Origin: an uncultured Halobacteria archaeon
GTDB taxonomy: Bacteria > Pseudomonadota > Gammaproteobacteria > UBA9214
Assembly (NCBI GenBank): GCA_963768575.1
Contig: CAVYIJ010000007.1
Coordinates: 45,945 to 109,944, forward strand
Length of the DNA stretch: 64,000 nucleotides
Reading direction: 5' to 3'
This document shows, in pieces, positions 910 through 17,408 of this stretch; position 1 is the stretch's first letter, and each line of letters opens with the position of its first letter. The translations under genes were made by a program, and so were the position numbers. A model generated the notes under the pieces. The model was not told where the DNA came from. It saw only the letters and a list, made by a program, of their open reading frames with translations, and did no database searches.

Positions 910-2262
910 CTAAAACGGCAGGCCCGCGGGACCCTTGTTTTTCATGGCGCGCAGCATCTTCCCCATGCCGCCTTTTGACATTTTCTTCATCATTTTCTGC
1001 ATCTGCAGGTGTTGTTTCAGCAGGCGATTGACATCCTGCACCTGGGTACCTGATCCGGCCGCGATGCGCCGCCGGCGCGAACCTTTAATGATTGCCGGGT
1101 GGGCGCGCTCCTTCATCGTCATGGAATTGATGATGGCTTTCATGCGATGGACCTGCCGGTCATCCGGTACGCCGTTCTTCTGCAATTGCGCGGCTCCCGG
1201 CAGTTTGTCTACCAGGCCGGCAAGACCGCCCATGTTGATCATCTGGTCGAGCTGATCACGAAAATCATCCATGTCGAAGCCTTTGCCTTTCGACAGCTTC
1301 TTCGCCAGCCGCGCAGCCGCTTCACCATCAACCTTTTGCTCGGCCTCCTCGACCAGGCTGAGCACATCCCCCATGCCGAGTATGCGCGATGCAATACGGT
1401 CAGGGTAAAACGGCTCCAGTGCAGCGGTTTTTTCGCCAACGCCGATAAACTTGATCGGCTTGCCGGTAATGGCACGTATCGACAGGGCCGCGCCGCCACG
1501 CGCATCACCGTCCGTTTTTGTCAGGATGACACCGGTCAGCGGCAGCACTTCATTGAAAGTGCGCGCCGTGTTGGCCGCATCCTGACCGGTCATGCTGTCA
1601 ACGACGAACAAGGTCTCCACCGGGTTGACTGCCGCGTGCAATCGCTGAATCTCGTTCATCATGTCATCGTCGATATGCAGGCGGCCGGCAGTATCGACGA
1701 TGACGACATCGATGTGTTGCTTGCGCGCATGCGCAATGGCATTTTTTGCGATGTCTACCGGGTCCTGGTCAGCACTGCTCGGAAAGAAGCCGGCATTGAC
1801 TTCACCTGCCAGCGTCTCCAGCTGGTCAATTGCCGCCGGCCTGTAAATGTCGCAACTCGCCAGCAATACCGATTTTTTCTCCCGCTCCATGAGCATGCGC
1901 GCAAGTTTTGCGCTACTGGTGGTCTTGCCCGAGCCCTGCAGGCCCGCCAACAGGATGACCGCCGGGGGCTGCACATTCAGGTTGAGCGCGTCGTTGGCAT
2001 CGCCCATGACATGAACGAGTTCATCATTGACGACCTTGACCAGGGCCTGCCCGGGAGTGAGGCTCTTGACAACCTCCTTGCCCGTGGCTTTTTCGCGCAC
2101 GCGTTCGATGAAGTCCTTGACCACCGGTAAAGCGGTGTCGGCCTCGAGCAATGCCATCCTCACATCGCGCAGTGCATCCTTGATATTGTCATCCGTCAGG
2201 CGGCCCTGGCCGCGCAGGTTTTTGATAGTCCTGGAAAGACGGTCACTCAAATTGTCGAACAT
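910..2262 (-). CDS. ffh: Signal recognition particle protein Ffh
   Basis: MFDNLSDRL start, GLQGSGKTT P-loop, DTAGR, TKTDGDARGG, Met-rich M domain. Confidence 0.98.
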   Translation of the reverse strand: MFDNLSDRLSRTIKNLRGQGRLTDDNIKDALRDVRMALLEADTALPVVKDFIERVREKATGKEVVKSLTPGQALVKVVNDELVHVMGDANDALNLNVQPPAVILLAGLQGSGKTTSSAKLARMLMEREKKSVLLASCDIYRPAAIDQLETLAGEVNAGFFPSSADQDPVDIAKNAIAHARKQHIDVVIVDTAGRLHIDDDMMNEIQRLHAAVNPVETLFVVDSMTGQDAANTARTFNEVLPLTGVILTKTDGDARGGAALSIRAITGKPIKFIGVGEKTAALEPFYPDRIASRILGMGDVLSLVEEAEQKVDGEAAARLAKKLSKGKGFDMDDFRDQLDQMINMGGLAGLVDKLPGAAQLQKNGVPDDRQVHRMKAIINSMTMKERAHPAIIKGSRRRRIAAGSGTQVQDVNRLLKQHLQMQKMMKKMSKGGMGKMLRAMKNKGPAGLPF

Positions 2263-2386
2263 TTTCTTTATGTATCCCCGATTATGAGCAAATTCACCAA
2301 ATGGCAAGTATAACGGTATTCAGACGGATACCGGCATACTCGCCGGGACACTTCTCTGTACGCCACAGTTATGCGATGATTCCGCC

Positions 2387-3196
2387 ATGAATTCAGTGAC
2401 GCTGGGCCTGCTTTCGATTGCTCTCTATTTGCTGGCCAGCGGCCTGCTGCTCATGCGGCTGGCGCAGGGCGCCACGGCAGCCGGTGGTCGACAACTTGAC
2501 CACCCGGTACTGATCGCACAGGCCGCGGTCCTGGCGCACGCGATACTCCTGTACCCGGCAATCATCACACCGGTCGGCCTGAACCTTGGAATAGTTCATG
2601 CCGCATCGCTCGTCGCATTGACCAGTGCAATACTGCTGACGATCTCTGCTTTTTTTCAGCCGGTGGGCAATCTCGGCATAGCGGTTTTCCCGGCGGCCGC
2701 CGTGACTATCGGGTTGTTGTTAAGTCATCCGAGCAGGCATCTTCTCGCCGGTTCATCCTGGCAGCTGGACACGCACATTCTTGCCTCGCTGCTGGCCTAC
2801 AGCATTCTCGGACTGGCCGTGTTGCAGGCAATTTTACTGTCTATTCAGGACCACCAGTTGCGCAACCGCAAACCCGGCGGTTTTATCCGTGCACTGCCTC
2901 CGCTGGCAGTCATGGAATCGCTGTTATACCAGATGATCGCTACCGGTTTTGCGTTGCTGACACTCGCACTGGTCACCGGGTTCCTGTTTCTTGAGGATAT
3001 TTTTGCGCAACATCTCGTTCATAAAACCACCCTTTCGATTATCGCCTGGATCGTATTCGGCATACTGCTGTGGGGACGCTGGCGATTTGGCTGGCGCGGC
3101 CGTACCGCGCTGCGCTGGACTATTGGCGGTTTCGTCTTCCTGATGCTCGCCTATTTCGGCAGCAAATTCGTGCTGGAACTGCTGCTGCAAAAGTAA
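2387..3196 (+). CDS. ypjD: Cytochrome c assembly family inner membrane protein (YpjD/CcsA-like)
   Basis: Multiple TM helices, HLVHKTTLSIIAW and RWRFGWRG motifs; conserved position divergent from ffh. Confidence 0.85.
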   Translation: MNSVTLGLLSIALYLLASGLLLMRLAQGATAAGGRQLDHPVLIAQAAVLAHAILLYPAIITPVGLNLGIVHAASLVALTSAILLTISAFFQPVGNLGIAVFPAAAVTIGLLLSHPSRHLLAGSSWQLDTHILASLLAYSILGLAVLQAILLSIQDHQLRNRKPGGFIRALPPLAVMESLLYQMIATGFALLTLALVTGFLFLEDIFAQHLVHKTTLSIIAWIVFGILLWGRWRFGWRGRTALRWTIGGFVFLMLAYFGSKFVLELLLQK

Positions 3197-3269
3197 AGGG
3201 TCCGCCCTGACATCGGCGCCTGATTTGCGTACACTAGCAGCTGGTTAACACACAAGAGGCTGTCCCCGT

Positions 3270-4568
3270 TTGGACGACATCCCGATAAGCGTGCTGCTGT
3301 CAGCACTGTTTCTCCTGATCCTGCTTTCCGCATTCTTTTCCGGCTCAGAGACCGGTCTGATGACAATCAATCGTTATCGATTGAGAAACATGGCCGACAA
3401 CAAGCACCCCGGCGCAATGCGCACCCAGCGATTGCTGCAGCGTCAGGACCGCCTGATCGGCCTGATACTGCTCGGCAACAACGTGGTCAATGTATTTGCC
3501 TCGATCCTGATGACCCTGATTGCTCTGCGAATCAACAGCGATGCCGGTTTTATATTTGCTGCCGGCATCGTGCTGACAATCGTTATCCTCCTGTTTGCCG
3601 AAGTCACGCCAAAAACCCTGGCCGCGATGCACCCGGAACGTTTTGCGTTTCCGGCTGCCTACGTCTACGTACCATTGCTGCGCCTGCTCTACCCGGTCGT
3701 ATGGGTCGTCAACGCATTTGCCAATGGCCTGTTGAAGTTGCTGAGGGTCTCTCCGGAAGGCAGGAGTACGCATGCACTGACACAGGAGGAACTGCGTACG
3801 GTTGTAATCGAAGCCGGTGCGCTGATTCCGGAACGTCACCAATCCATGCTGCTCAACCTCATCGATCTGGAAAAGGTGACGGTGGAGGACATTATGGTGC
3901 CGCGTAACGAGGTGGCCGGTATCGATATCGACGATGACTGGGACACCGTCACCCGCGCACTTACGGACAGCCAGTACACGCGCATGCCACTGTATCGCGA
4001 AAGCATCGACAATGTTATCGGGGTACTGCACATGCGCGATGTACTGCCGCACCTGTACCACGGGGAACTGGACCATAAATCCCTGCAGGGCATTGCGCGA
4101 GAGGCCTACTTCATACCGGAGAATACTTCACTGAACCGGCAGTTGCTTAATTTCCAGCGGGAGCGCCGGCGCATTGGTTTTGTCGTCGACGAGTACGGGG
4201 AGATCCAGGGGCTGGTAACGCTGGAGGACCTTCTCGAGGAGATCGTAGGGGAATTCACCTCGGCGCCATGGGCACTGTTCGAGGATATCCAGCAGCAGGA
4301 GGACGGCACCTGGCTGGTCGACGGTTCCGTGAATATCCGCAACCTGAATAACGCGCTGGGCATGTCACTGTCGATCGATGGCCCCAAGACACTGAACGGT
4401 TATATAACCGAGGTGCTGGAAATGATTCCTGTCGTCGATACCAGCCTGTTGCTCGACAATCACCCGGTGGATATTCTGCTGATCAAGGAAAACATGGTGA
4501 AGACCGTGCGCATACACCCCGCCCTGCAGGACCGGGCAGCAGCAGACGAACCGGGCGCCCGGCAATGA
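3270..4568 (+). CDS. HlyC/CorC (CNNM/DUF21-CBS-CorC) family transporter
   Basis: SAFFSGSETG, LLGNN, FAEVTPK, CBS pair (VVDEYGEIQGLVTLEDLLEEIVG), CorC C-terminal domain. Confidence 0.92.
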   Translation: MDDIPISVLLSALFLLILLSAFFSGSETGLMTINRYRLRNMADNKHPGAMRTQRLLQRQDRLIGLILLGNNVVNVFASILMTLIALRINSDAGFIFAAGIVLTIVILLFAEVTPKTLAAMHPERFAFPAAYVYVPLLRLLYPVVWVVNAFANGLLKLLRVSPEGRSTHALTQEELRTVVIEAGALIPERHQSMLLNLIDLEKVTVEDIMVPRNEVAGIDIDDDWDTVTRALTDSQYTRMPLYRESIDNVIGVLHMRDVLPHLYHGELDHKSLQGIAREAYFIPENTSLNRQLLNFQRERRRIGFVVDEYGEIQGLVTLEDLLEEIVGEFTSAPWALFEDIQQQEDGTWLVDGSVNIRNLNNALGMSLSIDGPKTLNGYITEVLEMIPVVDTSLLLDNHPVDILLIKENMVKTVRIHPALQDRAAADEPGARQ

Positions 4569-4828
4569 AACTGCTTTTCAATCTTGAAGTCGTAGAAGAC
4601 AATCGAATCAGGGCCCGGCCCAGCGAATACCTGCAATCGTTGCCCGCCGACCAGCAACTTGCAGCGGTCAGAGAATTTCTCGAGTGGGCAGAGACAGAGG
4701 CACGCGACAACCCGGACCCGCGGGCACGTGCGGAGGCCGGGATCGGTGCTGCAACCGCGCAGGAATTCCTTGAAAAACTGCAGCCACGCATTTATACGGG
4801 TTCGGACAAGGGGCAACAACGTGAGTGA
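4565..4828 (+). CDS. Hypothetical protein (87 aa)
   Basis: ATGA overlap with upstream stop and overlap with msrB start suggest translational coupling; no family recognised. Confidence 0.6.
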
Positions 4829-5219
4829 CGGCAAAGACAAAACCGATGAAGAGTGGCGTGCAAAACTGACGCCGGAACAATTCGAGGTCACCCGCCACAA
4901 GGGTACCGAGCGACCGTTCACCGGCGAGTACCTGGACTGCAAGGATGACGGCACCTACACCTGCATCTGCTGTGGCGCAGAATTGTTCAGTTCACGCGAC
5001 AAGTTCGATTCCGGCAGCGGCTGGCCGAGTTTCGTGCGTGCGGGCAACAGTGAAAACATCAAAACGGAAACGGATACCAGTCATGGCATGACCCGCGTCG
5101 AGGTCACGTGCGCGCAGTGTGGTGCACACCTCGGACATGTATTCGAGGACGGGCCCGCACCGACCGGCCAGCGCTATTGCATCAATTCGCTGTCACTGGA
5201 TTTCGATAAGAAGCGGTAA
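4821..5219 (+). CDS. msrB: Peptide-methionine (R)-S-oxide reductase MsrB
   Basis: [13 protein letters not shown] Zn motif, [25 protein letters not shown]; GTG start at 4821. Confidence 0.96.
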
Positions 5220-5617
5220 GGACAGCCATACCCGTCCAACGTGTTCCGCGCCCGGCCCGCGTGCAGGATTTTGCAGCGCCGTTGACCGGTTCTTTCACTC
5301 GAACTCCTTCAAATGACCATGTAACGACGGTCTGTCAATTTATTTAACACACATTTTAAAGCGGCTATAAGCTCATATCCCTCTGTTTTAAATAGATAAT
5401 ATCTGGCAAACGGCTAATTCGCACACTGATTGTCGGCACTCCCCGGGATTGTAATGACTGTATTTTTTACAGCCGCCCCGCTCCTTCTTTGACGCGTACG
5501 CCAGAAAAACAGCTAACTCACTCAATTGTAAACTTTATTTCCGTTGAGCATGGATATTGCATAAATTCACGATCAGGAGTCATACCCAGGGAAAAACAAC
5601 AGCTGGTGGCAATAACA

Positions 5618-6601
5618 ATGGATGATATGACAGCCGAAGCGGCTCGGGAAATACCAACCAGAGTAAACGGACACACCCTCATCGCCGCCAGCACATGCAT
5701 GCAGGGTGTGCTGCGCACCATCAACAAAATATCGAACAACGATGCCCCGGCAATCATTACCGGCGAAAGCGGCACCGGCAAGGAACTGGCCGCGCGCGCC
5801 ATACATGAACAATCCGCGCGCAGGGATGGCGCCTTCATTGCAGTCAATTGCGGGTCCCTGCCCGCCGGCCTGATCCAGTCTGAATTGTTCGGCCACATGA
5901 AGGGCGCGTTTACCGGCGCACACAGTGACCGGATCGGCAGGATCGAAGCGGCGGACAAGGGAACGATCTTTCTTGATGAAATCGGTGATCTGCCCGTCGA
6001 TCTGCAAGTCAACCTGCTGCGTTTCCTGCAGGAAGGCGTCATCGAGCGTGTCGGCAGCGCGGATTCGATACCGGTTGATGTGCGCGTACTGGCAGCCACA
6101 AACATCGACCTGGAGGATGCCATAAAGCAGGGACGGTTTCGGGAAGATCTTTACTACCGCCTGAATGTATTGCCGGTCGAGTTGCCGCCCTTGCGTGAGC
6201 GAGACAAGGATATCGAACAACTCGCCATGCATTTCTTTGCGGAATTCACCCGCAACAAAAAGACCAGGGCGCGTGGGTTCAGCACTTCAGCGCTTTCGGC
6301 AATGAATGCCTATCACTGGCCCGGCAACGTCCGTGAACTGATCAACCGCGTTCGCCGGGGCATTGTGATGTGCGACGGTCCGCAGATTACACAGGAAGAC
6401 CTTGAACTGAACGGCAACATCCACGAGCATCCCGCGAAGACCCTGGCCGAGGCGCGCCGCGAATCGGAGCGCAGCGCGATTAAGGAAGCGCTGATGTGCT
6501 GCCGCAACAACGTCTCCGAGGCAGCACGCCGGTTGAGAGTCTCGAGGGTTACCCTGTACCGCCTGATTGACAAACACGGCCTGAAAAGAAGCCTGGTATA
6601 A
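5618..6601 (+). CDS. Sigma54-dependent enhancer-binding protein (AAA+ and Fis HTH) with no N-terminal sensor domain
   Basis: GESGTGKE, ELFGHMKGAFTGA, FLDEIGDL, FREDLYYRL, WPGNVREL, C-terminal HTH; start could be 5489 (TTG) or 5618 (ATG). Confidence 0.93.
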   Translation: MDDMTAEAAREIPTRVNGHTLIAASTCMQGVLRTINKISNNDAPAIITGESGTGKELAARAIHEQSARRDGAFIAVNCGSLPAGLIQSELFGHMKGAFTGAHSDRIGRIEAADKGTIFLDEIGDLPVDLQVNLLRFLQEGVIERVGSADSIPVDVRVLAATNIDLEDAIKQGRFREDLYYRLNVLPVELPPLRERDKDIEQLAMHFFAEFTRNKKTRARGFSTSALSAMNAYHWPGNVRELINRVRRGIVMCDGPQITQEDLELNGNIHEHPAKTLAEARRESERSAIKEALMCCRNNVSEAARRLRVSRVTLYRLIDKHGLKRSLV

Positions 6602-6732
6602 ACCTCCTTACAGACCGAAGAATCGTTGGCCGATCAGTCATTTTATGCTAGTTTCCCGGGTCTGGCGTTAGCTGCACGACCACTGAATATATACCGCTGC
6701 TTGTATGGCGGCTTGGTGTTAATTGACAAAAG

Positions 6733-7985
6733 GTGAAAACGATGTCGAATCGAGTGATCAATAATTCTGTCCTGTTTGGCCTGTTACTGTGTTCCGGCCA
6801 GGTGCTCAGCGCCGACGGGGGCGTGGATACAAGACTGGATGCGCTTGAGAAAGTCATTACAGAACAGGCAGATACATTAGAGCAGCAGCGCCGGGAGATC
6901 CGCCGGCTGCGCCAGTCCATCGACGGGACGTCTGCTACCAACAGGCAGGCGAGCGGCGAGGAGCTGCCCGTGTCGGGACTTGAAGGGATGCGCGCGGGAG
7001 CGGCCCCCACACCGGTCGGCCAGGCGCCTGAAGAGAAACGCAAGGCCCCTTCCAGCCTGCTGTCATTGCCCGAGGATGTGGGCGGCGTGTTGACCGCGCA
7101 GGGCAAGCTGGTGGTGGAACCGAGCACCTCGTTCTCCACTTCCCAGCTCAACCGCTTCACCTTTCGCGGTATCGAGATCATCGATACCGTCCTGATCGGC
7201 ATCGTGGATGCAGAGGATGTCGACCGTGATATGTACACCGCGACGTTGACCGGCCGCTACGGCCTGACCAACCGCATCGAGCTGGAAGCGAAGCTGCCGT
7301 ACATCTGGCGTGACGACCGGCTGACCGCAACCATCCCGAATGTCGCAGGCACGGACGTCGATGTATACACGAGACCAGGAAGGCAACGGCATCGGCGACA
7401 TCGAACTGGCCGCCCATTACCAGATCAACCAGGGCGCCAATGGCTGGCCCTTCCTGATCGGCAACCTGCGTTACAAGTCGACCACGGGTGAAGGTCCGTT
7501 CGATGTCACGCGCGATGCAGGCGGCATTGAGACGGAACTGGCAACCGGCTCCGGCTTTCACTCCGTCGAAGGCCAGCCTCACCGTGCTGTATCCGACCGC
7601 ACCGGCGGTACTGTTTGGCAACGTCGGTTATCTCTTCACCAAACAGGACAGTATCAACAAGATGATCGGCACCAATTACGTGGGGAATGTCGACCCAGGC
7701 GATGCCGTGCGTACGAGCTTCGGTATGGCGTATTCCGTGAACGAGCGCCTGTCCTTTACCCTCGGTTACAAGCATGATTTTATCTTTCAAACCGATACAG
7801 TTATTGGTAGCAGTCCGGCCAGTGCCGTGACAGTGCATCAGGCCGACCTCGACGTGGGCTCCTTTCTGTTCGGCTATGGTTTCCAGTTGACCCCGAAGCT
7901 GGGCATCAATCTAAACGTGGAAATAGGCGCTACGGACGATGCGCCCGATGCAGCGGTGACGGTGCGTCTCCCCTACAGCATCTAG
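6733..7985 (+). CDS. fapF: FapF-like outer-membrane beta-barrel exporter, interrupted by two apparent +1 frameshifts (~7365, ~7571)
   Basis: Signal peptide, coiled coil LDALEKVITEQADTLEQQRREIRRL, TLTGRYGLTNR, GIGD, ELATGSG, PAVLFGN, C-terminal IGATDDAPD..TVRLPYSI, matching FapF motifs; spread over ORFs 6733-7491, 7340-7777 and 7488-7985. Confidence 0.8.
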
Positions 7986-8014
7986 GCGGTTATCCCGCAC
8001 AGTTAAAACATGGC

Positions 8015-8046
8015 TACGGGAGCGGGCTTTATAGCCCGCTCCTGTA
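8015..8046. terminator. REP-like hairpin, probable terminator downstream of fapF in the gap facing the fapE-like gene
   Basis: tacgggagcgggct-ttat-agcccgctcctgta, 14-bp stem with one G-U pair. Confidence 0.65.
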
Positions 8047-8427
8047 ACACGCCCTGGTGCTGGAATATGTTGTTCAGCTCTGCCTGGAATTCGAATTAAA
8101 CGGCTGGTAGTCGCCGTCAATTTACCCGCAGTGGGGCTTTCGCGGCGCCCCCTGAACGAACCAGGCAGATACTTCGCTGCAGAAACGCCTGCCGCTGCAT
8201 CAACGATCACTCACTATATTGACAGTAAATCAATAGCACCGCTGCGGTTGGCGTGAACGAGCCCCTATATCGCCCGATGCATCTTCCTGGTGGGCCAGCA
8301 GTCACTCGGGCCGTTCTTCCCGGTTCAGTTGCGCATGCAACCACTAGACGTTACGAAAGGTAAACTGTGCATTCTTGCTGCACATCATTACGCGGGATCG
8401 AGGAATGCCTGCGAGAGCAGACCGGTA

Positions 8428-9111
8428 TTAGCGTGGTGTTGACGCAGCGCGGACTGAGCGACCCAGCGTCCCGGCGAACACCGAGTTGCGAGCAGCTTCG
8501 ACATACTCGGTGAAATTCCTTATGGTGATATCCACTTCGAGTTGATTGCTGAGATTCTGGTCGTTGCTGTTTGTGACCAGGGCGCTGACAATACTGTTCT
8601 GCGTCAGCTTTTCAAGCACCGCCGTAAAACCGTCCGAATTACCGATGATAATGCCACCTGTGGCATCCGCCAATCCGGCAAGGTCAACGCCAGGCAGCAG
8701 GTTACCGAGGGTTGTACCCGCCGTACCGCCAACCAGGTGAACCGGGGCGGCAATACCGGGATCGGTGGTAAGTACATTGCTGGTCTGGTCAAATCCACCG
8801 GACGTGTTCAGGGAGTAGACCGCTTCACGGATATAACCGTTTCCGGTAGTGCGCAGGTTCACGCCAAAGCTGACGTCCAGCCCTGCGACCCTGAGGCCAC
8901 CACGCATGTTTTCCATTTCGCCCTCTTCGAGTGCGCCGAACTGCTCCATCGCCGCGCCCGGATCGGCAAACCGGTCACCGTCCAGCCGGGTGGCGGACGC
9001 CGGCAGTGCGCTGCTGCTCGTCACAACCGGGAACAGCGCCGCAAGTAGCAGTAATCCCGTTAAACAAGCCCGGCTTTTGCACACGGTTGATGTGTATCGG
9101 TCGCGCGGCAT
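8428..9111 (-). CDS. FapE-like secreted accessory protein
   Basis: Signal-like N-terminus, LEEGEMENMRGG motif, Asn/Gln-rich C-terminal strand motif (ALVTNSNDQNLSNQLEVDITIRN); last gene after C39 peptidase. Confidence 0.6.
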   Translation of the reverse strand: MPRDRYTSTVCKSRACLTGLLLLAALFPVVTSSSALPASATRLDGDRFADPGAAMEQFGALEEGEMENMRGGLRVAGLDVSFGVNLRTTGNGYIREAVYSLNTSGGFDQTSNVLTTDPGIAAPVHLVGGTAGTTLGNLLPGVDLAGLADATGGIIIGNSDGFTAVLEKLTQNSIVSALVTNSNDQNLSNQLEVDITIRNFTEYVEAARNSVFAGTLGRSVRAASTPR

Positions 9112-9112
9112 A

Positions 9113-9898
9113 TTAACGACCCTGCTCGTTTCTGCCCGGCAGTGACAGGGTGAAGGAGCTAATACTTGATCGATCGACGCCCTCGGCGAGGGGGGAATCA
9201 GGCCAGCTGCGCCAGTCTTCTATCGCATTGAAATTCGCGCGCGCGACCTCGATATTGTTTTTTGCCGCCAGGATAGCGCCGTTCCACATGCCTTCGAAGA
9301 CTTCCCGGCTGACAACCGCCGTTCCGGCCGCCGGGTCGCCGACAAGTACGCGCTCACCCTCGATACCCTTGATGACGACGAAATGCTTGTAGCCCTTGGT
9401 ATTGATAACGGTGATGCCGGGAACCCCGATTTTCATGAACTGGTCCAGGGTCATTCGAAAACCGCCGGCATTCAGGCCGCGGCTGTCGAGGTAATGCTTC
9501 ATGTCGAGCATGGAAAAACCCTGGCTCTTTATCTTTTTCTTGTTACCCACCTTGAACATCGCCTCGAACACCTTTGCTTCGGGTGTCGGCATGTCGTAGT
9601 GGTAAGTCAGCAGGGTGGCCAGTGCCGCGGAACCACAGCTGTAGTCGTACTGTTGTTGTATGACCGTGTCCCAGCGTGCTTCCTTCTTGCTTTCCACCTT
9701 GAGCTTGAAATCACCCCCGCCAAAGCCGGGAATGGCCAGCGCGCCGGCATGCGCAGGAAAACAGCCCAGCTGGATGACTGCGAATATTGCCGGCAACAGA
9801 AATAACGAAGGCCTGGCAAGTGCCAGGCCGAATAGTCCAGTAATGGCAGACTTATTGCTGCCCTGTTTTTGTGTGAAAATGTTTTGCACAGCAAACAT
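9113..9898 (-). CDS. fapD: Stand-alone C39 family peptidase (FapD-like)
   Basis: QQYDYSCGSAALATLL (Cys), YKHFVV (His), VGDPAAG (Asp); hydrophobic signal; no fused ABC transporter. Confidence 0.88.
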   Translation of the reverse strand: MFAVQNIFTQKQGSNKSAITGLFGLALARPSLFLLPAIFAVIQLGCFPAHAGALAIPGFGGGDFKLKVESKKEARWDTVIQQQYDYSCGSAALATLLTYHYDMPTPEAKVFEAMFKVGNKKKIKSQGFSMLDMKHYLDSRGLNAGGFRMTLDQFMKIGVPGITVINTKGYKHFVVIKGIEGERVLVGDPAAGTAVVSREVFEGMWNGAILAAKNNIEVARANFNAIEDWRSWPDSPLAEGVDRSSISSFTLSLPGRNEQGR

Positions 9899-9920
9899 AC
9901 ACTAATTGTGATAACCAGTC

Positions 9921-10298
9921 TTATTGCAAGTTAATAGTGACGCCAATTGCATTGTTGACGGCGTTGTTGTTGCCTGTGACCACGTTGAACAGGCCGACAC
10001 CGCTGAACTCACCCAACGCACCTTCCGCGAAGCTGGCATTGCCGCTCGTCATCGTGCCGACATTGAAACTGCTGCCTGTGATGCTGGCACCCAGGTCCTG
10101 GTTGCTCTGCACGGTGATTGTGGTGCTGCCTTCACGTCCCCGCACGCCACCGAGATCATCACCCTCGATACTGGTGAAGTTGCCGAATGCCTCTGCAGTG
10201 GCCGGTTCCCCGGCGTATAACGGCCCGGCCGTGATCAGTACCATACTGCTGATGGCGGCCAGTACTACCTTCGAGATCGAACTGATTTTGTCCATCAT
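9921..10298 (-). CDS. Small secreted Fap-repeat protein (FapB-like candidate nucleator/minor subunit)
   Basis: Sec signal (PLYA), DDLGGVRG motif, C-terminal GNASFAEGALGEFSGVGLFNVVTGNNNAVNNAIGVTINL resembling the Fap repeat. Confidence 0.7.
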   Translation of the reverse strand: MMDKISSISKVVLAAISSMVLITAGPLYAGEPATAEAFGNFTSIEGDDLGGVRGREGSTTITVQSNQDLGASITGSSFNVGTMTSGNASFAEGALGEFSGVGLFNVVTGNNNAVNNAIGVTINLQ

Positions 10299-10367
10299 AT
10301 CAACCTTCCTGAATTCGAGTTGTTTTCTTCGCTACTTTTATGAATTCGGTTTCAACCCCTGCAAACC

Positions 10368-10395
10368 GGGGCCGGCAGACACTGCCGCCGGCCCC
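10368..10395 (-). promoter_or_regulatory. GC-rich intercistronic stem-loop after the two Gly-rich genes
   Basis: GGGGCCGGCGG-CAGTGT-CTGCCGGCCCC on the minus strand, 20 nt after the stop at 10416, no strong U-tract. Confidence 0.55.
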
Positions 10396-10415
10396 TTCTT
10401 GCTGCAGTGTTGCTG

Positions 10416-11900
10416 TTACAGACCGCCGTTGGTGGACACACCGCCGAATGAACCGATGTTCACTCCGCTGGCTGCACCGATCGACACGCCACCCAGGGTC
10501 CCGTTGTAGAGACCGGCTGATGCGTTGATGTTGGCGATACCACCGAGTACACCACCTGCGGTGCTAACGGTAGCCGTATCGGTGGCCAACTGGCCGCCGG
10601 AAGCAAGACCGCCATTACCACCGGATGCACCGCCACCGGCGTTGCCGCCGAAGCCGCCGAATCCGCCGGCGCCGCCGTCTGCACCATCAGCAGTGTTGGT
10701 GCCATTGTTGGTTTCACCACCAACTCCACCGTCACCACCGATCGCACCATTGGCATTGTTGTTGCCGTTGCTGGTGCCGCCACCATTGCCGCCGGCTCCC
10801 GCATTGGCCATGTTGCCGCCGTTGCTGGTGCCGCCACCGTTGGCGCCGTCACCGGCATCACCACCATTGGCATTGTTGCCGCCGTTGCTGGGTCCGCCGC
10901 CGTCACCGCCGTCACCGCCGTCGGCCGTTACAACGATATCACCACCGTCGCCGCCGCCGTCGCCGCCGCCGTCACCGCCACCCAGGTTGCTGCCGCCGTT
11001 ACCGCCGTTGGCATCACCTGAACCAGCTGCAACAGAGCCGCCGTAACCGCCTGCACCACCTTCACCACCGTCAGCATCGCCGTCGGTCGTGGTGATCATG
11101 CCGCCGTCACCGCCCTCGCTGCCGTAGGCATTACCGTAGCCTTTGGCTTTTCCACCTTCACCGCCATCGCCACCGTGACCGCCGTTGGCATCGCCGTAGG
11201 TGTCGATGTCACCACCATCGCCACCTTCATAGCCGTCACCGCCGTCAGCAAGACCGCCGTCACCGCCGTCACCGCCCGAATAACCGTCACCGCCATAGGC
11301 AGCACCGATATCGATGATGGACTCACCGGTTACAGTCGCATCCAGCGTCTGGTAGGAAATGACTTCCTTGATGGTGTTGAATGCCTCACTGTTGGCCTCG
11401 GCAGTTCCACCTAGACCACCCTCCGAGTGACCACCGAAACCACCATCGCCGCTATCGCTGCTCTGGGTGCTATCTGCAGTGCTGCCCTGGTCAGTGGTGT
11501 TGTCGTTGGTCTGAGTCGACCCGGTGTCTGCCAGATCACCACCATCACCACCTTCATCGCCACCACCGTTGCCCGATACAGCGTCATCGTTGGTCTGGAC
11601 TGAGGTGTTGTTATTGTTGCTGCTGGAGGTGCTATCGCCCGTGGCGTCGCCGCCATCGGCGCTTCCGCCGCTACCGCCCTCACCACCATCGGCGTTGGCT
11701 GTTGCAGTGGAATTGACGGTGTTGGACTGCCCACCGGACATCCCCACGTAACCGTTTAAAGTTTCAGCCGCTTGAGGTGCTTCATAGACCTGGCCACCGT
11801 TAGACAAATTGAACGAATTAACGGGGTTAGCCTGTGCACCTGTCGCTGTGAACATGCACATCGACACGGCTGAACTCACAAGTAGAGTTTTGAATTTCAT
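10416..11900 (-). CDS. Secreted Gly-rich (GGxGGx) putative fibre subunit B with Fap-like C-terminal repeat
   Basis: Sec signal AQA|NPVN; long GGD/GGN/GGA tracts; C-terminus GGIANINASAGLYNGTLGGVSI; RBS AGGAG. Confidence 0.85.
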   Translation of the reverse strand: MKFKTLLVSSAVSMCMFTATGAQANPVNSFNLSNGGQVYEAPQAAETLNGYVGMSGGQSNTVNSTATANADGGEGGSGGSADGGDATGDSTSSSNNNNTSVQTNDDAVSGNGGGDEGGDGGDLADTGSTQTNDNTTDQGSTADSTQSSDSGDGGFGGHSEGGLGGTAEANSEAFNTIKEVISYQTLDATVTGESIIDIGAAYGGDGYSGGDGGDGGLADGGDGYEGGDGGDIDTYGDANGGHGGDGGEGGKAKGYGNAYGSEGGDGGMITTTDGDADGGEGGAGGYGGSVAAGSGDANGGNGGSNLGGGDGGGDGGGDGGDIVVTADGGDGGDGGGPSNGGNNANGGDAGDGANGGGTSNGGNMANAGAGGNGGGTSNGNNNANGAIGGDGGVGGETNNGTNTADGADGGAGGFGGFGGNAGGGASGGNGGLASGGQLATDTATVSTAGGVLGGIANINASAGLYNGTLGGVSIGAASGVNIGSFGGVSTNGGL

Positions 11901-11920
11901 GACCTCTTCTCCTGTTCAGC

Positions 11921-13198
11921 TTAATTGCCGATGTTGACGTTGGAATGAGCGGAAATGGATACGCCACCCAGCGTCGCGTTGTACAGCCCGGAAGAAACGT
12001 TGATGTTGGCAATACCGCCGAACGTACCGGCAGCCGTAGTCACGTCAACCGCACCGGTTGTCAGCACACCACCGGTTGCGTCACCGCCGTTACCACCAGC
12101 ACCGCCGCCACCGCCTGCACCTGCTGTACCACCGTCACCACCGGCACCACCGGCACCCGCATTGGCGATGTTGCCGCCATTGTTGGTCGTACCGCCGCCA
12201 GCACCGTTACCGCCTGCAGCACCATCGGCAGTGTTACCGCCGTTGTCGGTCGTACCACCGGCACCGCCGTCTGCGCCATCAGCAACATTCGTGCCGTTAC
12301 CGCTTGTACCACCGGCACCGCCAGCGCCACCGTTACCGCCATCCGCAGCGTTGGTGCCGTTGTTCGGCGTACCGCCGTTACCGCCATTGCCGCCGTTACC
12401 GGCCACTGAATCACCGCCGTAGCCGCCATTGGCACTACCGTCGCCGGTGGCCGAACCGCCGGAGCCGCCCGAGCTGCCTTCACCGCCATCGGCATCGCCG
12501 CCGCTGACACTGATGGTGCCGCCGCTGCCGCCGTAACCGGCGTCTGCGTCACCCTTGCCCTTGGCATAACCGCCAGCACCGCCTTCACCGCCGTCGCCAC
12601 CGTTGGCATCGCCGTTGGTCGTGATGGTGCCGCCGTCACCGCCGTGGTCTCCGTCACCGCCATCGGCATCACCGCCGTGACCGCCATGGCCACCGGATGC
12701 ACCGTTACCGCCGGTTGCACCACCAATCGTGATGCTGGCACCGGTAATCTGGGCTTCCAGGGTCTGGTAGGAAATGACTTCCACGATATCGTTGAACGAC
12801 TCACTGTTGGCTGTTGCCGTGCCGCCAGCGCCGCCCGTGGAGTTGCCGCCTGTACCACCGGCACCGGCCGTGCTGGTCTGATTACTCGTGGCCGAATCGG
12901 TCTGGGTCGTGCCATTGGTGTTTGCCTGATCGGACTCAGCAGCACTGCTGTTGGCCTGATCACTGCTGTTGCTATTGCCGCTTGTGGCATTGCTAGAACC
13001 GCTTGCCTCACCACCGTCAGCATCTCCACCATCACTCGCGCTGCCGCCATAGGCATTCGCTGTGGCTGTTGAAGTTACGTCGTTGTGTTGACTACCTCCG
13101 AAATTGAACTTGTTAGTCGGGTTGGCAGATACGCCGCAGGCGTAACTGATGCCAATTGCCAGTGCTGACACCGTCAGCAGTTTCGTTTGCTTTTTCAT
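11921..13198 (-). CDS. Secreted Gly-rich (GGxGGx) putative fibre subunit A, paralog of 10416-11900
   Basis: Sec signal VSA|NPTN; shares STATANA, ANSE.FN.I.EVISYQTL.A..TG.SI and GGIANIN.S.GLYN.TLGGVSI blocks with the neighbour; RBS GAGGAG. Confidence 0.85.
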   Translation of the reverse strand: MKKQTKLLTVSALAIGISYACGVSANPTNKFNFGGSQHNDVTSTATANAYGGSASDGGDADGGEASGSSNATSGNSNSSDQANSSAAESDQANTNGTTQTDSATSNQTSTAGAGGTGGNSTGGAGGTATANSESFNDIVEVISYQTLEAQITGASITIGGATGGNGASGGHGGHGGDADGGDGDHGGDGGTITTNGDANGGDGGEGGAGGYAKGKGDADAGYGGSGGTISVSGGDADGGEGSSGGSGGSATGDGSANGGYGGDSVAGNGGNGGNGGTPNNGTNAADGGNGGAGGAGGTSGNGTNVADGADGGAGGTTDNGGNTADGAAGGNGAGGGTTNNGGNIANAGAGGAGGDGGTAGAGGGGGAGGNGGDATGGVLTTGAVDVTTAAGTFGGIANINVSSGLYNATLGGVSISAHSNVNIGN

Positions 13199-13404
13199 TT
13201 TTTCTCCTCAGTCCACTCAAACAAAAACGTTTTTACTCAATGGAATTAAAAACCTCAGTAATGCAGTGACGACGTAGAACCCGACTGTTATGCCAGGTCT
13301 GCACGGAGATATGCGTTATTGAAGCGAAGCCACTAAATAGGGTTTGCAGGGCGTGCTTCGATAACACCATCCATTGTCATGCCTTAATCAGGTACCGTAA
13401 TACC

Positions 13405-13421
13405 AGCAAGGAATGTACCAA
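13405..13421 (-). promoter_or_regulatory. Sigma54 (-24/-12) promoter for the Gly-rich/Fap operon
   Basis: Minus strand TTGGTACATTCCTTGCT: GG-N10-GC spacing with TTGC at -12; about 200 nt upstream of the first gene; sigma54 EBP in the locus. Confidence 0.75.
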
Positions 13422-13622
13422 CAGAAATATTCAATAAACAAAACAATAAGATATCTACCAGAGTGTCGTGTTTTCTGGCGCTATCCATGAATAACCTGCA
13501 AAAAGTGATTAGCGCGCTTTACACTCTTTCGCCGGGCAAAGCTCCAGACACGCGCAATTTGATGAATCAAAGACACCCGCAGCCAGGGGCCAGAATGGTT
13601 ATTTTGTATCTATATTCATATA

Positions 13623-13635
13623 TTTCAATAGCTTG
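13623..13635 (+). promoter_or_regulatory. IHF-like site
   Basis: TTTCAATAGCTTG, one mismatch to WATCAANNNNTTR; a weaker site AAACAATAAGATA at 13441-13453. Confidence 0.4.
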
Positions 13636-14207
13636 CAGTACATATTTGTGATGTCGATTGCGTACACGAACGACCTGGAACGGGTCAAATGACATTGTTT
13701 CAACATTGTTACACCTGACAATATTGAAACTACGGCGACCACGTTTTCGGGACGAATCCGGCCACCATTACCCTGCACGCCTGACGAACTGGACGGGAAT
13801 GTGCACCAGTGTTGTTACACATTCCCTTTTATTTACTCCGAAAATGAGCGGATCGGGCTTAAATTCCTGCCTGTTAAGAATCCTGACGCAGGCCGCCTGT
13901 GGGCACCCCGATACCTGGTAACGGTTGCGGCAATGAAACGCAGCCCACTACGCGGGCATCCGGTTCGACGCCTGTCAAAGGCAATAATTGCTCGATGGCT
14001 GGAAGTTATAAAAGATGTCGCATAGTATGGTTGAATGATGTACGGCAAGTACAACAACAGCCTGCTAGTGGCGAAAACACCGCCGCACGGCTGAAATCTT
14101 GCCACAGTACTCAAGGCAATGTTGTCAGGCTGCCTGAGGAACCGATTGGGATTATTTTGATGCGAAGTCACTACTGTTGTTTTGTAATGGATCGTGGTGC
14201 GAGTTGG

Positions 14208-17200
14208 ATGCACACGGAAAAACGGGCTGTTTCCTGTACCTCACTGTGGCAAGCCTTTTTCTCATTACTGCAAAATAATAATTTTTTCCGGTCAGTAATC
14301 ATGCCTGCACTGTTGCTGGCAGGCCTGCATGGGTGCGCTACCCAGATGCAGATGGGCGATCAAAATACGCTCGTCACGGCAGCCACCGTTGGCGACAACA
14401 CCAAGGTAGCAAAACTGCTCGGCCAGGGAGTCGATGCAAATATCCAGCTGAATGATGGCACCACGGCATTGTTCATGGCAGCACAGCAAGGACACACAGA
14501 TACCGTCACGTTGCTGCTCAATGCCCAAGCCAACGTCAACGTGCTGGGTTATCGTGGCGCGACACCGTTACTCATTGCCGCTACGACCGGTCACACGGAC
14601 ATCGTCGACCTGCTCGTCAAGCGTGGCGCCACCGTGGATATTCCACGTGAAGATCAAGCCACGCCCCTGTTCATGGCGGCACAGGGCGGTTATGTGAACG
14701 TCGTGAACCTCCTTATAGATGCAGGCGCATATCCGGACAAGCTCGCATACAAGGGAGCAACTGCGTTGTTCATTGCAGCCCAGAACGGACATCACCCGGT
14801 TGTCCAGGCACTTGCAGTCAAAGGCGCAGATGTAAACCTGGGCCTGGAGGACGGCACGACACCGCTCCTCGCAGCAGCGCTGAAAGGACACATGAGTGTC
14901 AGCAGGGTTCTGCTGGAGCATGGCGCCAGGCCGGATACTGCAAATAACCGCGGCATGACACCAATGCTGGCTGCTCGTCAGGAAGGTCACCCGGAATTGT
15001 CGGCATTACTCGGCAGGGCACTGGCATCGCCCGCGCTGGCAGGCACCAAAACCGGCCCGGCACCGGAAATCCAGTCCGCCCCGGTTGTTGAGGAAACGAC
15101 CGGTGCAGTTGCTGCAATGTCATCCGGTCAGCCCGTGCCTGCTGAAAGCGCCGAAACGCGAGTCGTGGCCGAGGTAAGACAAATACCGGGTACAAACACT
15201 GATGCCGCGTCAACGGCAACAACTGCTTCTGCCGCGTCAACGGCAACAACCGCTTCTGCCGTGTCAACGGCAACAACCGCTTCTGCCTCGACAAGCGGCA
15301 CGACACCGCATGAAGCGGCCGTAAAAACGGAAGAATCACCTGCCGGCACAGACCAACCGTCATCCGGCCCAATGCAGGCAGCAACAGTGACGACCGTAAG
15401 CGGCGTGCCTGCTTCAAAGGATAACGACAATACCGCGCCGGTACCGGCACCTGTCACAGAACGGGTAACCGACAGCACTGCGGGCACCGACAAACAAGTT
15501 GCACCGTCCACCGCCGCCTCATGGCGACCTGAAACACCGGCGTCGCAGGTAGCCGGTGACACTGCACCAAAAGACAGCCAGCCCACCGTCAAGCCGTCCG
15601 CTCCGGAACCAACAACTGTCGCGCAGCAGGCGGCCGCCCGGAAAGCCGGTGACGGACCGCAAGCTGCACCGGCAACCGCCGCAACCTGGCAGCCTGAAAC
15701 ACCGGCGTCGCAGGTAGCCGGTGACACTGCACCAAAAGACAGCCAGCCCACCGTCAAGCCGTCCGCTCCGGAACCAACAACTGTCGCGCAGCAGGCGGCC
15801 GCCCGGAAAGCCGGTGACGGACCGCAAGCTGCACCGGCAACCGCCGCAACCTGGCAGCCTGAAACGCCGGCGTCACAGGTAGCGGCCGACGCCGTTCCAG
15901 AAGTCAAACAGGCCGCCGGCAAGCCGGCCGCTCCGGAACCGACCGCGGTCGCGCAGCAGGCGGCCGTCGTGAAAAGCGGTGATGGACCAACAACTGCACC
16001 GGCAACCGTCGCCACGCAACCGGCTGAAAAGCCGGTGCAGCAGGCATCCGGCAAAACCATGCCTGCAACTCCGCAACCGGCACCGAGTAAAATCACCGTA
16101 GCCGGCAAACCGGCTACTGACGAAAAGATTGTGTATATGAAGCCAACGCCGCCCGAGCCCGTGAAAACCGGCGAACGTACCGAACGAGAGGCAGCGACCG
16201 TTGGCGCTGCGCCTGCTGCCGCGAATAAACCAGTGCAAAAAAAGAGAGACGATGGACCCGCTACCATAACAAAACCGGCAATAAAAACTCCGCCGGTAGA
16301 ACTGGCACAGGAAAATTCCGCGAGTATGGAAAATACCATCGCGACAGCTGAACGTGCCGACGAGGACAACACCAGCCCGGTCAGCAGTGCCGTCAGCAAA
16401 AGGTCGACCGACTCACCGGTCGCTTCCAAAACAGAAACAATCGTTGCGAACGTAGACAAGAATAAGGATGAACCGCGCACCGAACCTGCGCAGGCACCGG
16501 ACCTTGCAACTACCGGAACCGCCAAAACCCGCCTGGCTGCAATCGAACTCGAGAGCGACGATCTACAGGTGCGCGCCACAACCAGCAGAAAAATTCTTCG
16601 CGAGGAAACAACTCCCGCAGAGACAGTTAAAAAAGTAATAAAGGGACTGGACGAGGACGAGGAATCCGGACTGGCGGATACCGGTGCCGCGACAATCCAG
16701 AAGCAGTTCACCCGTAAAAATTTCGATGCGAACAAGCATGTGAAGCCGATGCAGGGTAACTTCATCGTCATAAAACCAACGGATATCTATACATCACCTC
16801 AATGGCATGCCTCCAGGTTCAGGAGCCTTGCATCCGGACGTAAAGTAGAGGTCAACGGTTACGTGCAGGGCGGAAAATGGTTTCGTATCAAGTATGCCGG
16901 CGGGGATGGTTACGTCCCGGTACGGCGGCTGAGGGAGATCAGGGACGAAACAACCGGGGAACCGGCCTCCGCGGAGATAAGTGCTGAAACCCTGAAGCGG
17001 AAAATAAACGTTCTTCCGGAAGGTACTTCGGAGCAGCACTACAAATTTGCCATGAATATGTTCCAACTCGGTGAATACACAACGGCTACCCAGGCATTTT
17101 CGGAATTTGTTGAATTACATCCGCATGACTCGAAGGCGCCCAGCGCCATTTACTGGCAGGGCATGTCGTACTACGTCAAGCAAAACTATTCGCAGGCTGC

Positions 17201-17408
17201 TTCCAGTTTCATGCTTCTCTACAAGAGTTTCCCAAGGGACAATAAAGCCGCGGAGGGCCTGCTCAAGTTGAGTAATTCCCTGCACGCACTGGGCAAGCAG
17301 GAAGCCGCCTGTACAGCCCTGGAACAGTTGCGTAATGAATACCCGGGATCCTATCTACGCCTTAAACGTGAAATATATAACAGCGGGGCGGATGCGGGAT
17401 GCTCCTGA
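14208..17408 (+). CDS. Putative lipoprotein: 7 ankyrin repeats, long Ala/Pro/Thr linker, SH3-like domain, CpoB/YbgF-like TPR domain
   Basis: LLLAGLHGC lipobox-like (Cys codon 14334); TPL/TALF.AA..GH..VV.LL repeats; GKWFRIKYAGGDGYV; YWQGMSYY..QNYSQAA...KAAEGLLKL. Start uncertain (13899-14301). Confidence 0.8.
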   Translation: MHTEKRAVSCTSLWQAFFSLLQNNNFFRSVIMPALLLAGLHGCATQMQMGDQNTLVTAATVGDNTKVAKLLGQGVDANIQLNDGTTALFMAAQQGHTDTVTLLLNAQANVNVLGYRGATPLLIAATTGHTDIVDLLVKRGATVDIPREDQATPLFMAAQGGYVNVVNLLIDAGAYPDKLAYKGATALFIAAQNGHHPVVQALAVKGADVNLGLEDGTTPLLAAALKGHMSVSRVLLEHGARPDTANNRGMTPMLAARQEGHPELSALLGRALASPALAGTKTGPAPEIQSAPVVEETTGAVAAMSSGQPVPAESAETRVVAEVRQIPGTNTDAASTATTASAASTATTASAVSTATTASASTSGTTPHEAAVKTEESPAGTDQPSSGPMQAATVTTVSGVPASKDNDNTAPVPAPVTERVTDSTAGTDKQVAPSTAASWRPETPASQVAGDTAPKDSQPTVKPSAPEPTTVAQQAAARKAGDGPQAAPATAATWQPETPASQVAGDTAPKDSQPTVKPSAPEPTTVAQQAAARKAGDGPQAAPATAATWQPETPASQVAADAVPEVKQAAGKPAAPEPTAVAQQAAVVKSGDGPTTAPATVATQPAEKPVQQASGKTMPATPQPAPSKITVAGKPATDEKIVYMKPTPPEPVKTGERTEREAATVGAAPAAANKPVQKKRDDGPATITKPAIKTPPVELAQENSASMENTIATAERADEDNTSPVSSAVSKRSTDSPVASKTETIVANVDKNKDEPRTEPAQAPDLATTGTAKTRLAAIELESDDLQVRATTSRKILREETTPAETVKKVIKGLDEDEESGLADTGAATIQKQFTRKNFDANKHVKPMQGNFIVIKPTDIYTSPQWHASRFRSLASGRKVEVNGYVQGGKWFRIKYAGGDGYVPVRRLREIRDETTGEPASAEISAETLKRKINVLPEGTSEQHYKFAMNMFQLGEYTTATQAFSEFVELHPHDSKAPSAIYWQGMSYYVKQNYSQAASSFMLLYKSFPRDNKAAEGLLKLSNSLHALGKQEAACTALEQLRNEYPGSYLRLKREIYNSGADAGCS
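15207..15287 (+). repeat. 3 x 27-nt coding tandem repeat (ASTATTASA)
   Basis: gcgtcaacggcaacaacYgcttctgcc three times, the third starting gtg. Confidence 0.85.
15528..16022 (+). repeat. 165-nt (55-aa) coding tandem repeat, two identical copies plus one diverged
   Basis: cctgaaac.ccggcgtc starts at 15528, 15693 and 15858. Confidence 0.9.

Follow-up and report, generated by a model that had tools for sequence, protein, structure and literature searches.

To our knowledge, the Fap system of Pseudomonas is one of only two well-understood pathways for the export of bacterial functional amyloid. The logic of curli is similar: unfolded repeat subunits rich in Asn, Gly and Ala are exported by Sec, pass a dedicated outer-membrane channel and are nucleated outside the cell. 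In Pseudomonas the fap genes form a single co-directional cluster, fapABCDEF, whose major subunit FapC has three repeats, and a gene encoding a sigma-54 enhancer-binding protein (EBP) lies convergently just after fapF. FapA is a chaperone, FapB and FapC consist of imperfect repeats rich in Asn, Gln, Gly and Ala, FapF is a trimeric 12-stranded outer-membrane barrel with a plug, and the product is a cross-beta fibril that resists SDS or formic acid. In P. fluorescens PF07 that gene is brfA, the promoter of fapA-E is of the RpoN-dependent -24/-12 type, and fapF is expressed differently from fapA-E (PMC9207406). Secretion in the canonical system requires the catalytic Cys of FapD, and about 70 N-terminal residues are removed from FapE; the target of FapD is given as unknown (PMC5557850). 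Here we analyze a 64,000-nucleotide stretch of DNA (the window; positions 45,945 to 109,944 of contig CAVYIJ010000007.1, assembly GCA_963768575.1) that carries a variant of this system built around two Gly-rich proteins, each of which appears to be a single Fap-type repeat split by a long Gly-rich insert. On balance we favor the reading that the locus is a diverged paralog of the Fap system that exports and assembles an extracellular fiber or matrix, with these split-repeat proteins as its major subunits.

Much of the Pseudomonas system is recognizable in this locus. Both have a FapF-type barrel (with a coiled coil in the window copy), a periplasmic C39 peptidase of FapD type, a FapE-like gene right after the peptidase gene, a gene for a repeat protein that is putatively related to FapB/FapC right before it, a convergent sigma-54 EBP beside the cluster, and a -24/-12 promoter-like element ahead of the subunit genes. 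In contrast to the Pseudomonas system, the putative major subunit is a one-repeat module split by a Gly-rich insert and not a three-repeat FapC; the small repeat protein carries a FapE-type N-terminal motif that is absent from FapB; fapF lies with the activator gene on the opposite strand; the peptidase and barrel fall far under the NCBIfam equivalog cut-offs, and the remaining secreted proteins go unrecognized by NCBIfam models; and the variant coexists with canonical-type fapBCDE in some Halomonadaceae. What is new is the subunit architecture and the gene order; machinery and regulation follow a known type.

Other systems are more distant. The putative pilus system Fil of Acinetobacter, compared on peptidase and barrel, also pairs a stand-alone C39 peptidase (FilB) with a FapF-like barrel (FilC), but the window proteins score lower on FilB and FilC than on FapD and FapF and far under the cut-offs of 475 and 630. 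No component homology to curli (CsgA/CsgB, CsgG) was detected, and the channel, accessory proteins and regulation differ. The Gly-rich domains of mycobacterial PE_PGRS proteins and the polyglycine-II sandwich of phage gp38 type likewise have long GGX runs with Ala, Asn and Asp; the likeness is of composition only, whereas there is no sequence match and the export route is different. The features of the window locus are as follows.

5489 to 6601, plus strand: sigma-54 EBP (R; BrfA-like, AAA+ plus Fis-type helix-turn-helix, HTH), 370 amino acids (aa), lacking the N-terminal regulatory domain
6733 to 7985, plus strand: FapF-type barrel (F), 416 aa when read through, with signal peptide, coiled coil, linker, plug and barrel
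8428 to 9111, minus strand: FapE-like secreted protein (E), 227 aa, with an N-terminal E-M-x-x-M-R-G-G motif
9113 to 9898, minus strand: C39 cysteine peptidase (D), FapD-like, predicted periplasmic, 261 aa (PF03412, 9e-22)
9921 to 10298, minus strand: small secreted protein (S), FapB-like, 125 aa, with one Fap-type repeat after a FapE-type leader-like motif
10416 to 11900, minus strand: Gly-rich protein B, 494 aa, 33% Gly
11921 to 13198, minus strand: Gly-rich protein A, 425 aa, 31% Gly
13405 to 13420, minus strand: sigma-54 type -24/-12 promoter-like element, TGGTACATTCCTTGCT; the start of Gly-rich A lies about 207 bp downstream
13697 to 13730, minus strand: inverted repeat with 13-bp arms, GTTTCAATATTGT..ACAATGTTGAAAC, about 280 bp upstream of the promoter-like element

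An earlier note on this DNA, made from the sequence alone, had described an EBP and a FapF-like barrel on the plus strand facing a minus-strand operon of five genes, and our listing of open reading frames (ORFs) recovered all of them at the coordinates it gave. The note's description of signal-like N-termini was also borne out: read by eye, the minus-strand products and the barrel begin with one or more basic residues, a hydrophobic run and an A-x-A-like site. The order G-G-S-D-E on one strand (G denoting a Gly-rich protein), with R and F convergent on the other, is kept in the clade. An independent JGI metagenome contig is 99.96% identical to window positions 8290-15177 and has the same five minus-strand genes. 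As the note had also surmised, no clear fapA is present: a FapA profile had no match outside the Pseudomonas loci, in any variant locus, and no candidate ORF occurs within 13199-14300 of the window. Runs containing the window sequence are sediment metagenomes, and the window's Ffh protein is most similar (79% at best) to those of uncultured Ectothiorhodospiraceae and Gammaproteobacteria metagenome-assembled genomes (MAGs), which places the source organism among the uncultured gammaproteobacteria.

The Gly-rich proteins and the small protein S

A and B are paralogs that align colinearly at 59% identity. The constant features of the G architecture, taken from 27 family members, begin with a signal peptide ending at A-x-A, followed by N-P-x-N-K-F and a stretch of 36-221 aa rich in Gly, Ser, Asn and Asp. 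There follow a central block, A-(W/Y)-S-E-S-F-N...V-I-S-Y-Q-x-L/M-x-x-T-V-T-G-x-x-I; a second Gly-rich stretch of 145-606 aa with 38-48% Gly, then Ala, Asn, Asp and Thr, and hydrophobic residues almost nil; and a conserved end, L-x-T-G-A...G-T-F-G-G-I-A-N-I-N-V-S-S-G-L-Y-N-x-x-L-G-G-V-S-V-A-A-H-S-N-V-N-I-G-N (C-terminal half, FGGIANINVSSGLYN...). In B this plan comprises the signal peptide, the Gly/Ser/Asn/Asp-rich region, a first half resembling S, a 237-aa insert (46% Gly), the second half and a short C-terminal tail; A follows the same plan, its insert measuring 217 aa (46% Gly) and its C-terminus being the conserved ...AHSNVNIGN.

Profile comparisons were based on family alignments from 25 loci of the window's type and 80 Pseudomonas fap loci. 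The central block of G corresponded to S positions 27-48 (84%, P 7e-6) and the C-terminal block continued at S positions 49-89 (P 0.0016); both matches run colinearly and abut. When the insert was deleted in silico, the joined G core aligned with the S family over 62 columns at 96.5% (E 1e-9), and unrelated control families remained below 1%. Because the halves match S in colinear, abutting fashion and the joined core matches it as a unit, we read each G protein as a single repeat of S type that a Gly-rich insert interrupts at one defined position. The earlier note had proposed two paralogs with more than 200 aa of Gly-rich sequence and a single C-terminal repeat; the paralogy and the length of the inserts hold, but the repeat is not confined to the C-terminus, its halves being central (SESFN..VISYQ..TVTG) and C-terminal.

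Within the insert Gly recurs with a period of three (GGX), sub-repeats of 18-21 residues take the form GGxGGxGG-T-x-x-N-G-x-N-x-A-D, and the coding DNA has tandem periods of 63 nt in A and 54 nt in B. An RTX-type calcium-binding repeat, considered for GGDGGDGG, was set aside by eye: the nonapeptide's hydrophobic position is not there, and the sequence has hardly any hydrophobic residues. Searches of PDB sequences with Gly-rich A returned nothing at E<=10. The Gly-rich DNA also varies in length at strain level, with an extra CCG (one Gly codon) at 10905 at about half of the depth in run X1; in a contig from another run, a 61-base stretch at 11524-11586 is exchanged for 70 other bases.

The small protein S represents a conserved family, with an S-like gene directly upstream of D in 80 of 82 loci examined. 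When a hidden Markov model (HMM) was iterated from mature S, it picked up, for most other loci, the small gene immediately before D. FapB entered in round 1 by way of its repeats (E 2e-8 to 1e-4) and FapC over rounds 2-4; apart from FapB and members of the S family, the round-1 matches inspected were small genes upstream of D or multi-repeat proteins of the same loci. This iteration lends moderate support to a link between S and FapB/FapC that is transitive only, passing through intermediates. S would join the FapB/FapC-type subunits by this route, and G joins S and not FapB or FapC directly; each has one repeat unit, not three. The earlier label of a small Fap-repeat protein finds moderate support in the iterated HMM but none in direct comparison, which was not significant (see below). 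A PDB sequence search with S gave nothing at E<=10.

Peptidase, barrel and activator

The peptidase D matches FapD over hhalign comparison at 100%, and its Cys88, His172 and Asp188 are invariant in 20 homologs. It scores 139 bits (E 1e-40) on the NCBIfam FapD model, 117 bits on FilB and at most 51 bits on transporter-family models, against cut-offs of 330, 475 and at least 500, respectively. The earlier identification of a FapD-type peptidase is therefore sound as homology, with its catalytic triad, but not as orthology by the equivalog cut-off. Among PDB sequences D matched bacteriocin-processing peptidase domains (6mpz, 2e-8; PCAT1).

The 227-aa protein E, encoded directly downstream of the C39 gene, had been called FapE-like, and this assignment gained moderate support from its fixed place after D and from iterated searching. 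An HMM built from mature E collected, in round 1, the genes downstream of D in other loci together with one Pseudomonas FapE fragment (E 7e-4, improving to 5e-9 in round 2), and by round 3 included 82/82 FapE sequences. The hhalign comparison of E with FapE gave 85%, restricted to 63 N-terminal columns.

A motif, [ED]-[LMIV]-x-x-[LMIVAT]-R-[GA]-[GRK], occurs soon after the signal peptide in E, in Pseudomonas FapE and in S of the clade; in the window copy of E it reads E-M-E-N-M-R-G-G. Among Pseudomonas FapE sequences 96% carry it, against 56% for variant E, 42% for variant S and 2% for S-like proteins of other loci, and it occurs in none of FapB, FapC or G; its rate in carrier families, 2-4 per 1000 residues, exceeds the background of 0.02 about 100-fold. 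Occurrences were located in window ORFs 8428-9111 and 9921-10298 (minus strand) and at 6857-7606 of locus L004. Double-glycine leaders cut by C39 peptidases have an acidic residue at -8, hydrophobic residues at -7 and -4, and Gly at -2, and the register of the motif is alike. We propose E-L-x-x-L-R-G-(G/R) as a candidate recognition site of FapD-type peptidases, in which case S would also be processed in this clade.

The read-through barrel had a sole PDB match, FapF (5o65/5o67/5o68; E 2e-29), which aligned barrel residues 109-414 with chain residues 20-332 and covered plug plus barrel; hhalign with FapF gave 99.9%. The description of a FapF-like barrel is accordingly borne out at the level of homology but falls short at the NCBIfam equivalog cut-off: the window barrel gave partial matches to the FapF model, the intact Halomonas barrel reached 141 bits against a cut-off of 700, and the C-terminal part of the window barrel scored 47 bits on FilC (cut-off 630).

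As assembled, the barrel gene spans three frames (from 6733 to about 7366, to about 7572, and to 7985), separated by two +1 frameshifts located by tblastn against the Halomonas ortholog; removing one base near 7367 and one near 7572 restores the 416-aa protein. Short-read contigs of close strains do not have the extra bases. A contig of run X1, about 98% identical, lacks 7573, and its unaligned end, GATGTAT-CACGAG, lacks the A at 7367; a contig of run X2 lacks 7367 and 7571; and one of run X5 lacks 7572. The window's mutL is similarly divided into two overlapping minus-strand ORFs, 38185-39060 and 38786-39961, which together encode the ATPase plus DNA_mis_repair and MutL_C domains, and in two near-identical short-read contigs the junction, at 38937, is one base shorter; this is probably an assembly indel error and not the mark of a mutator pseudogene. 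Since the extra bases of the barrel gene are absent from contigs of close strains, and mutL behaves alike, both barrel frameshifts are probably assembly errors of the same kind and not decay. Elsewhere in the window, a dCache sensor (19099-19917) and a HAMP-GGDEF-EAL protein (19805-21556), both on the plus strand, lie in overlapping frames and are probably one cyclic di-GMP signaling gene split by a frameshift.

The EBP contains the Pfam domains Sigma54_activat (5e-69), AAA_lid_14 and HTH_8, and is 56% identical to the EBP of the Halomonas locus and 54% identical, over AAA+ and HTH, to the EBP adjacent to Pseudomonas fapF. It covers profile positions 121-450 of 456, so that the N-terminal regulatory domain of its relatives, about 120 aa, is gone; the DNA upstream has stops in all frames and no detectable domain remnant. 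By position and sequence we regard the window activator as the counterpart of BrfA, with RpoN/BrfA-type control suggested at the level of motif and adjacency. The earlier note had counted as distinctive the placement of fapF in a convergent unit with its own activator. That fapF lies on the activator's side holds, but the activator itself is no novelty, BrfA being convergent in Pseudomonas too. The 270-bp spacer between msrB and the activator gene (5220-5488), with stops in all frames, is more variable between strains than the activator body: one contig covering 5200-5692 differs at 32 of 493 bases, and the differences listed all fall at 5235-5437. This fits loss or replacement of the N-terminal domain.

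The strict motif TGGYAY-N5-TTGCW had 13 matches on both strands of 785 kb of clade loci, five of which lie 33-222 nt upstream of a G ORF start (window 13405-13420 among them), where about 0.1 was expected; two further copies precede canonical-type fapB in adjoining loci. The inverted repeat at 13697-13730 is a possible activator-binding site, as a weak lead. Scans for sigma-70 promoters and terminators gave background levels only, and a search of Rfam models over 4500-14500 gave a single chance match to a miRNA model, below threshold.

Distribution and relation to canonical fap genes

The extent of the G family was estimated by a pattern scan with the G core across 185,579 species genomes, which sets a lower bound. 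At least 98 stretches were confirmed, in many Halomonadaceae, Nitrococcus mobilis, Aquisalimonas, Thiohalobacter, Thioalkalivibrio, Motiliproteus and Marinobacter, in the alphaproteobacterial Pelagibius/Denitrobaculum/Kiloniellaceae, and in uncultured Gammaproteobacteria. Among the 61 loci that are fully flanked, D, S and F are each present in 61, E in 60 and R in 54. The arrangement is no chance juxtaposition, since it recurs in every fully flanked G locus, and the association of FapF, C39 peptidase and Gly-rich proteins that the earlier note had proposed to seek by gene neighborhood is seen in all 61.

The C39 family itself is far broader: the protein index yielded 2375 matches, and the scan of species genomes at least 600 stretches. 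Across 82 loci examined, beside the near-universal S-like gene, an E-like gene follows D in 57, F lies within 8 kb in 69 and R is present in 53; the 24 with G-type proteins are the window's nearest clade. Elsewhere in the superfamily the place upstream of S is taken by other large proteins, e.g. of 674, 876 and 1684 aa with 9-20 Fap-type repeats, which are a different subunit type and apparently undescribed as well. Multi-repeat large proteins of this sort were observed at 2245-7299 and 10744-12900 of locus L109, 5450-7474 of L107 and 4781-7411 of L116.

Canonical-type fap genes adjoin the variant locus in Aidingimonas halophila, Billgrantia aerodenitrificans and a Halomonas MAG, those of Aidingimonas scoring 95 (FapB), 153 (FapC), 284 (FapD) and 102 bits (FapE) on NCBIfam models. 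Because canonical-type fapBCDE adjoins it in these three Halomonadaceae genomes, the variant is best read as a paralogous system and not as the species' own Fap. The orthology of barrel and peptidase to FapF and FapD, a point on which the earlier note had staked its proposal, is touched by this placement and by the scores under the equivalog cut-offs; their homology stands. The canonical-type neighbors lie at L092 13086-16468, L101 13354-15900 and L105 6830-7555, and those of L092 and L105 have their own sigma-54 promoter-like element before the fapB-like gene.

Direct database searches returned little. Full-length Gly-rich A had no match in an index of 5.8 billion proteins, low-complexity words having swamped the candidates; the insert-free core profile found 15 short fragments only in the same index, and an exhaustive HMMER search with an A+B profile found 17 fragments. 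Where source annotation of G fragments exists, it reads hypothetical protein, and neither Pfam nor NCBIfam has a model that names the Gly-rich proteins, S or E. A literature search found no description of this type of locus and no joint mention of FapF and Halomonas; Dueholm 2013 (PMC3792158) mentions neither Halomonas nor glycine, and a search on Fil found only vaccine and biofilm work. The suggestion that the architecture is undescribed has therefore held up in the databases and literature searched.

Proposed assembly and competing explanations

In the assembly that we propose, the BrfA-like activator would act at the -24/-12 element to drive the operon of the two G genes, S, D and E, whose products, judged by their signal-like N-termini, would cross the inner membrane by Sec. 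In the periplasm, D would process one or more components, most likely the FapE-like protein and S at the motif described, and the FapF-type barrel, by analogy with its homologs, would pass unfolded substrates over the outer membrane. Outside the cell, the S repeat and the split G repeats may stack into a cross-beta spine, from which the Gly-rich inserts (145-606 residues, 38-48% Gly) would loop out and coat the fiber. In this scheme the role of FapC, the major subunit, would fall to the Gly-rich proteins, and that of FapB, nucleator or minor subunit, to S. A more specific version, in which the fiber is a composite amyloid whose spine rungs are the split repeats and whose inserts form either an ordered polyglycine-II or solenoid array or an elastic hydrated brush, with the shared motif as the FapD site, we put forward tentatively and consider rather unlikely as a whole.

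Several results weigh against a Fap-type fiber with G as its subunit. Direct hhalign comparisons of S or G with FapB, FapC and FapA were not significant (2-5% for S with FapB/FapC), and the intermediates that match S at 97.6% in profile-profile comparison match FapB at 19%. NCBIfam models of FapB, FapC and FapE had no match in S, G or E even at E<=10, and the FapC repeat signature GN-x-G-N-x2-AG-x2-NQQ-x-N (quoted in PMC5557850) is not evident by eye in S or G. AlphaFold2 predictions for Gly-rich A (two-sequence alignment) and S (single sequence), with pLDDT (predicted local distance difference test) values of 34.7 and 34.1, give support neither to a cross-beta core nor to any state of the insert. 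The window activator is without its N-terminal domain, the barrel is twice frameshifted, so that function in the source organism hinges on the assembly-error view, and a search for RNA runs carrying the locus found none.

The most serious competing explanation accepts Fap-like machinery but takes G as exported cargo or surface protein and not an amyloid subunit. G might be an adhesin, a matrix protein that is hydrated or binds ions, or a domain with polyglycine-II or beta-solenoid structure, with the split S-like module as a secretion or anchoring tag that docks onto a short stub based on S and FapE or onto the barrel. An insert that makes up about half of each G protein, with its abundant Gly and near absence of hydrophobic residues, is indeed unlike known amyloid cores, and the GGX triplets with 18-21-residue sub-repeats recall, as a likeness only, the PE_PGRS pattern reportedly modeled as a polyglycine-II sandwich (PMC9436101). 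The quite different large proteins (674-1684 aa) upstream of S in other loci also suggest that the machinery may take varied cargo. Against this, the halves of the S-like module are far better conserved than the insert over about 100 species, the exact C-terminus included, and an ordered insert is without support from structure prediction. Variable linkers between repeats, moreover, are reportedly a property of FapC as well. We regard the cargo explanation as unlikely, if well short of negligible.

That the locus is instead a decaying, non-functional remnant in its source organism is suggested by the barrel in three frames and by the EBP that has lost some 120 N-terminal residues with no upstream remnant, but becomes improbable when the rest of the record is considered: the extra barrel bases are missing from the close-strain contigs of X1, X2 and X5, mutL has the same single-extra-base error and another window gene is split, the five minus-strand genes are intact and (near-)identical in the independent JGI contig, and EBPs of 389-409 aa are known from other superfamily loci. 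A double-glycine bacteriocin or peptide-export system is a far more remote prospect still. The resemblance of the C39 domain to bacteriocin-processing domains and the leader-like motif of S and E would accord with it, yet no ABC transporter is encoded within 5489-13421, the peptidase stands alone (261 aa) with a signal-like N-terminus as in FapD, its best families are FapD and FilB and not transporter-fused ones, and it is tied to a FapF barrel in 61/61 loci.

The locus is of wider use in three respects. The FapD/FapE/FapF core, always after a small single-repeat protein, occurs in at least 600 species genomes of the scan, where the large proteins that accompany it differ greatly, and spans Alpha-, Beta-, Gamma- and Deltaproteobacteria among the best 80 of at least 600 stretches. 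The G proteins offer a clean natural case of an amyloid-type repeat that tolerates a huge Gly-rich insertion at one point, of use for loops displayed on functional amyloid, and the leader-like motif is a site that FapD-type peptidases may recognize. Many of the carriers can be cultured, among them Halomonas, Nitrococcus mobilis, Marinobacter and Thiohalobacter. Should the composite amyloid be real, halophilic and marine bacteria would possess a matrix material unlike curli or Fap in its properties; should G not polymerize, what remains is an uncommon cargo of a secretion pathway already known.

Beyond the promoter-like element and inverted repeat, a large ankyrin-repeat gene (13899-17408, plus strand; true start probably about 14300) diverges from the fiber operon across a low-GC spacer of 1.1 kb. 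Its product has a lipoprotein-like start (..LLAGLHGC..), three near-identical tandem repeats of about 55 residues rich in Pro, Thr and Ala, and C-terminal TPR repeats.

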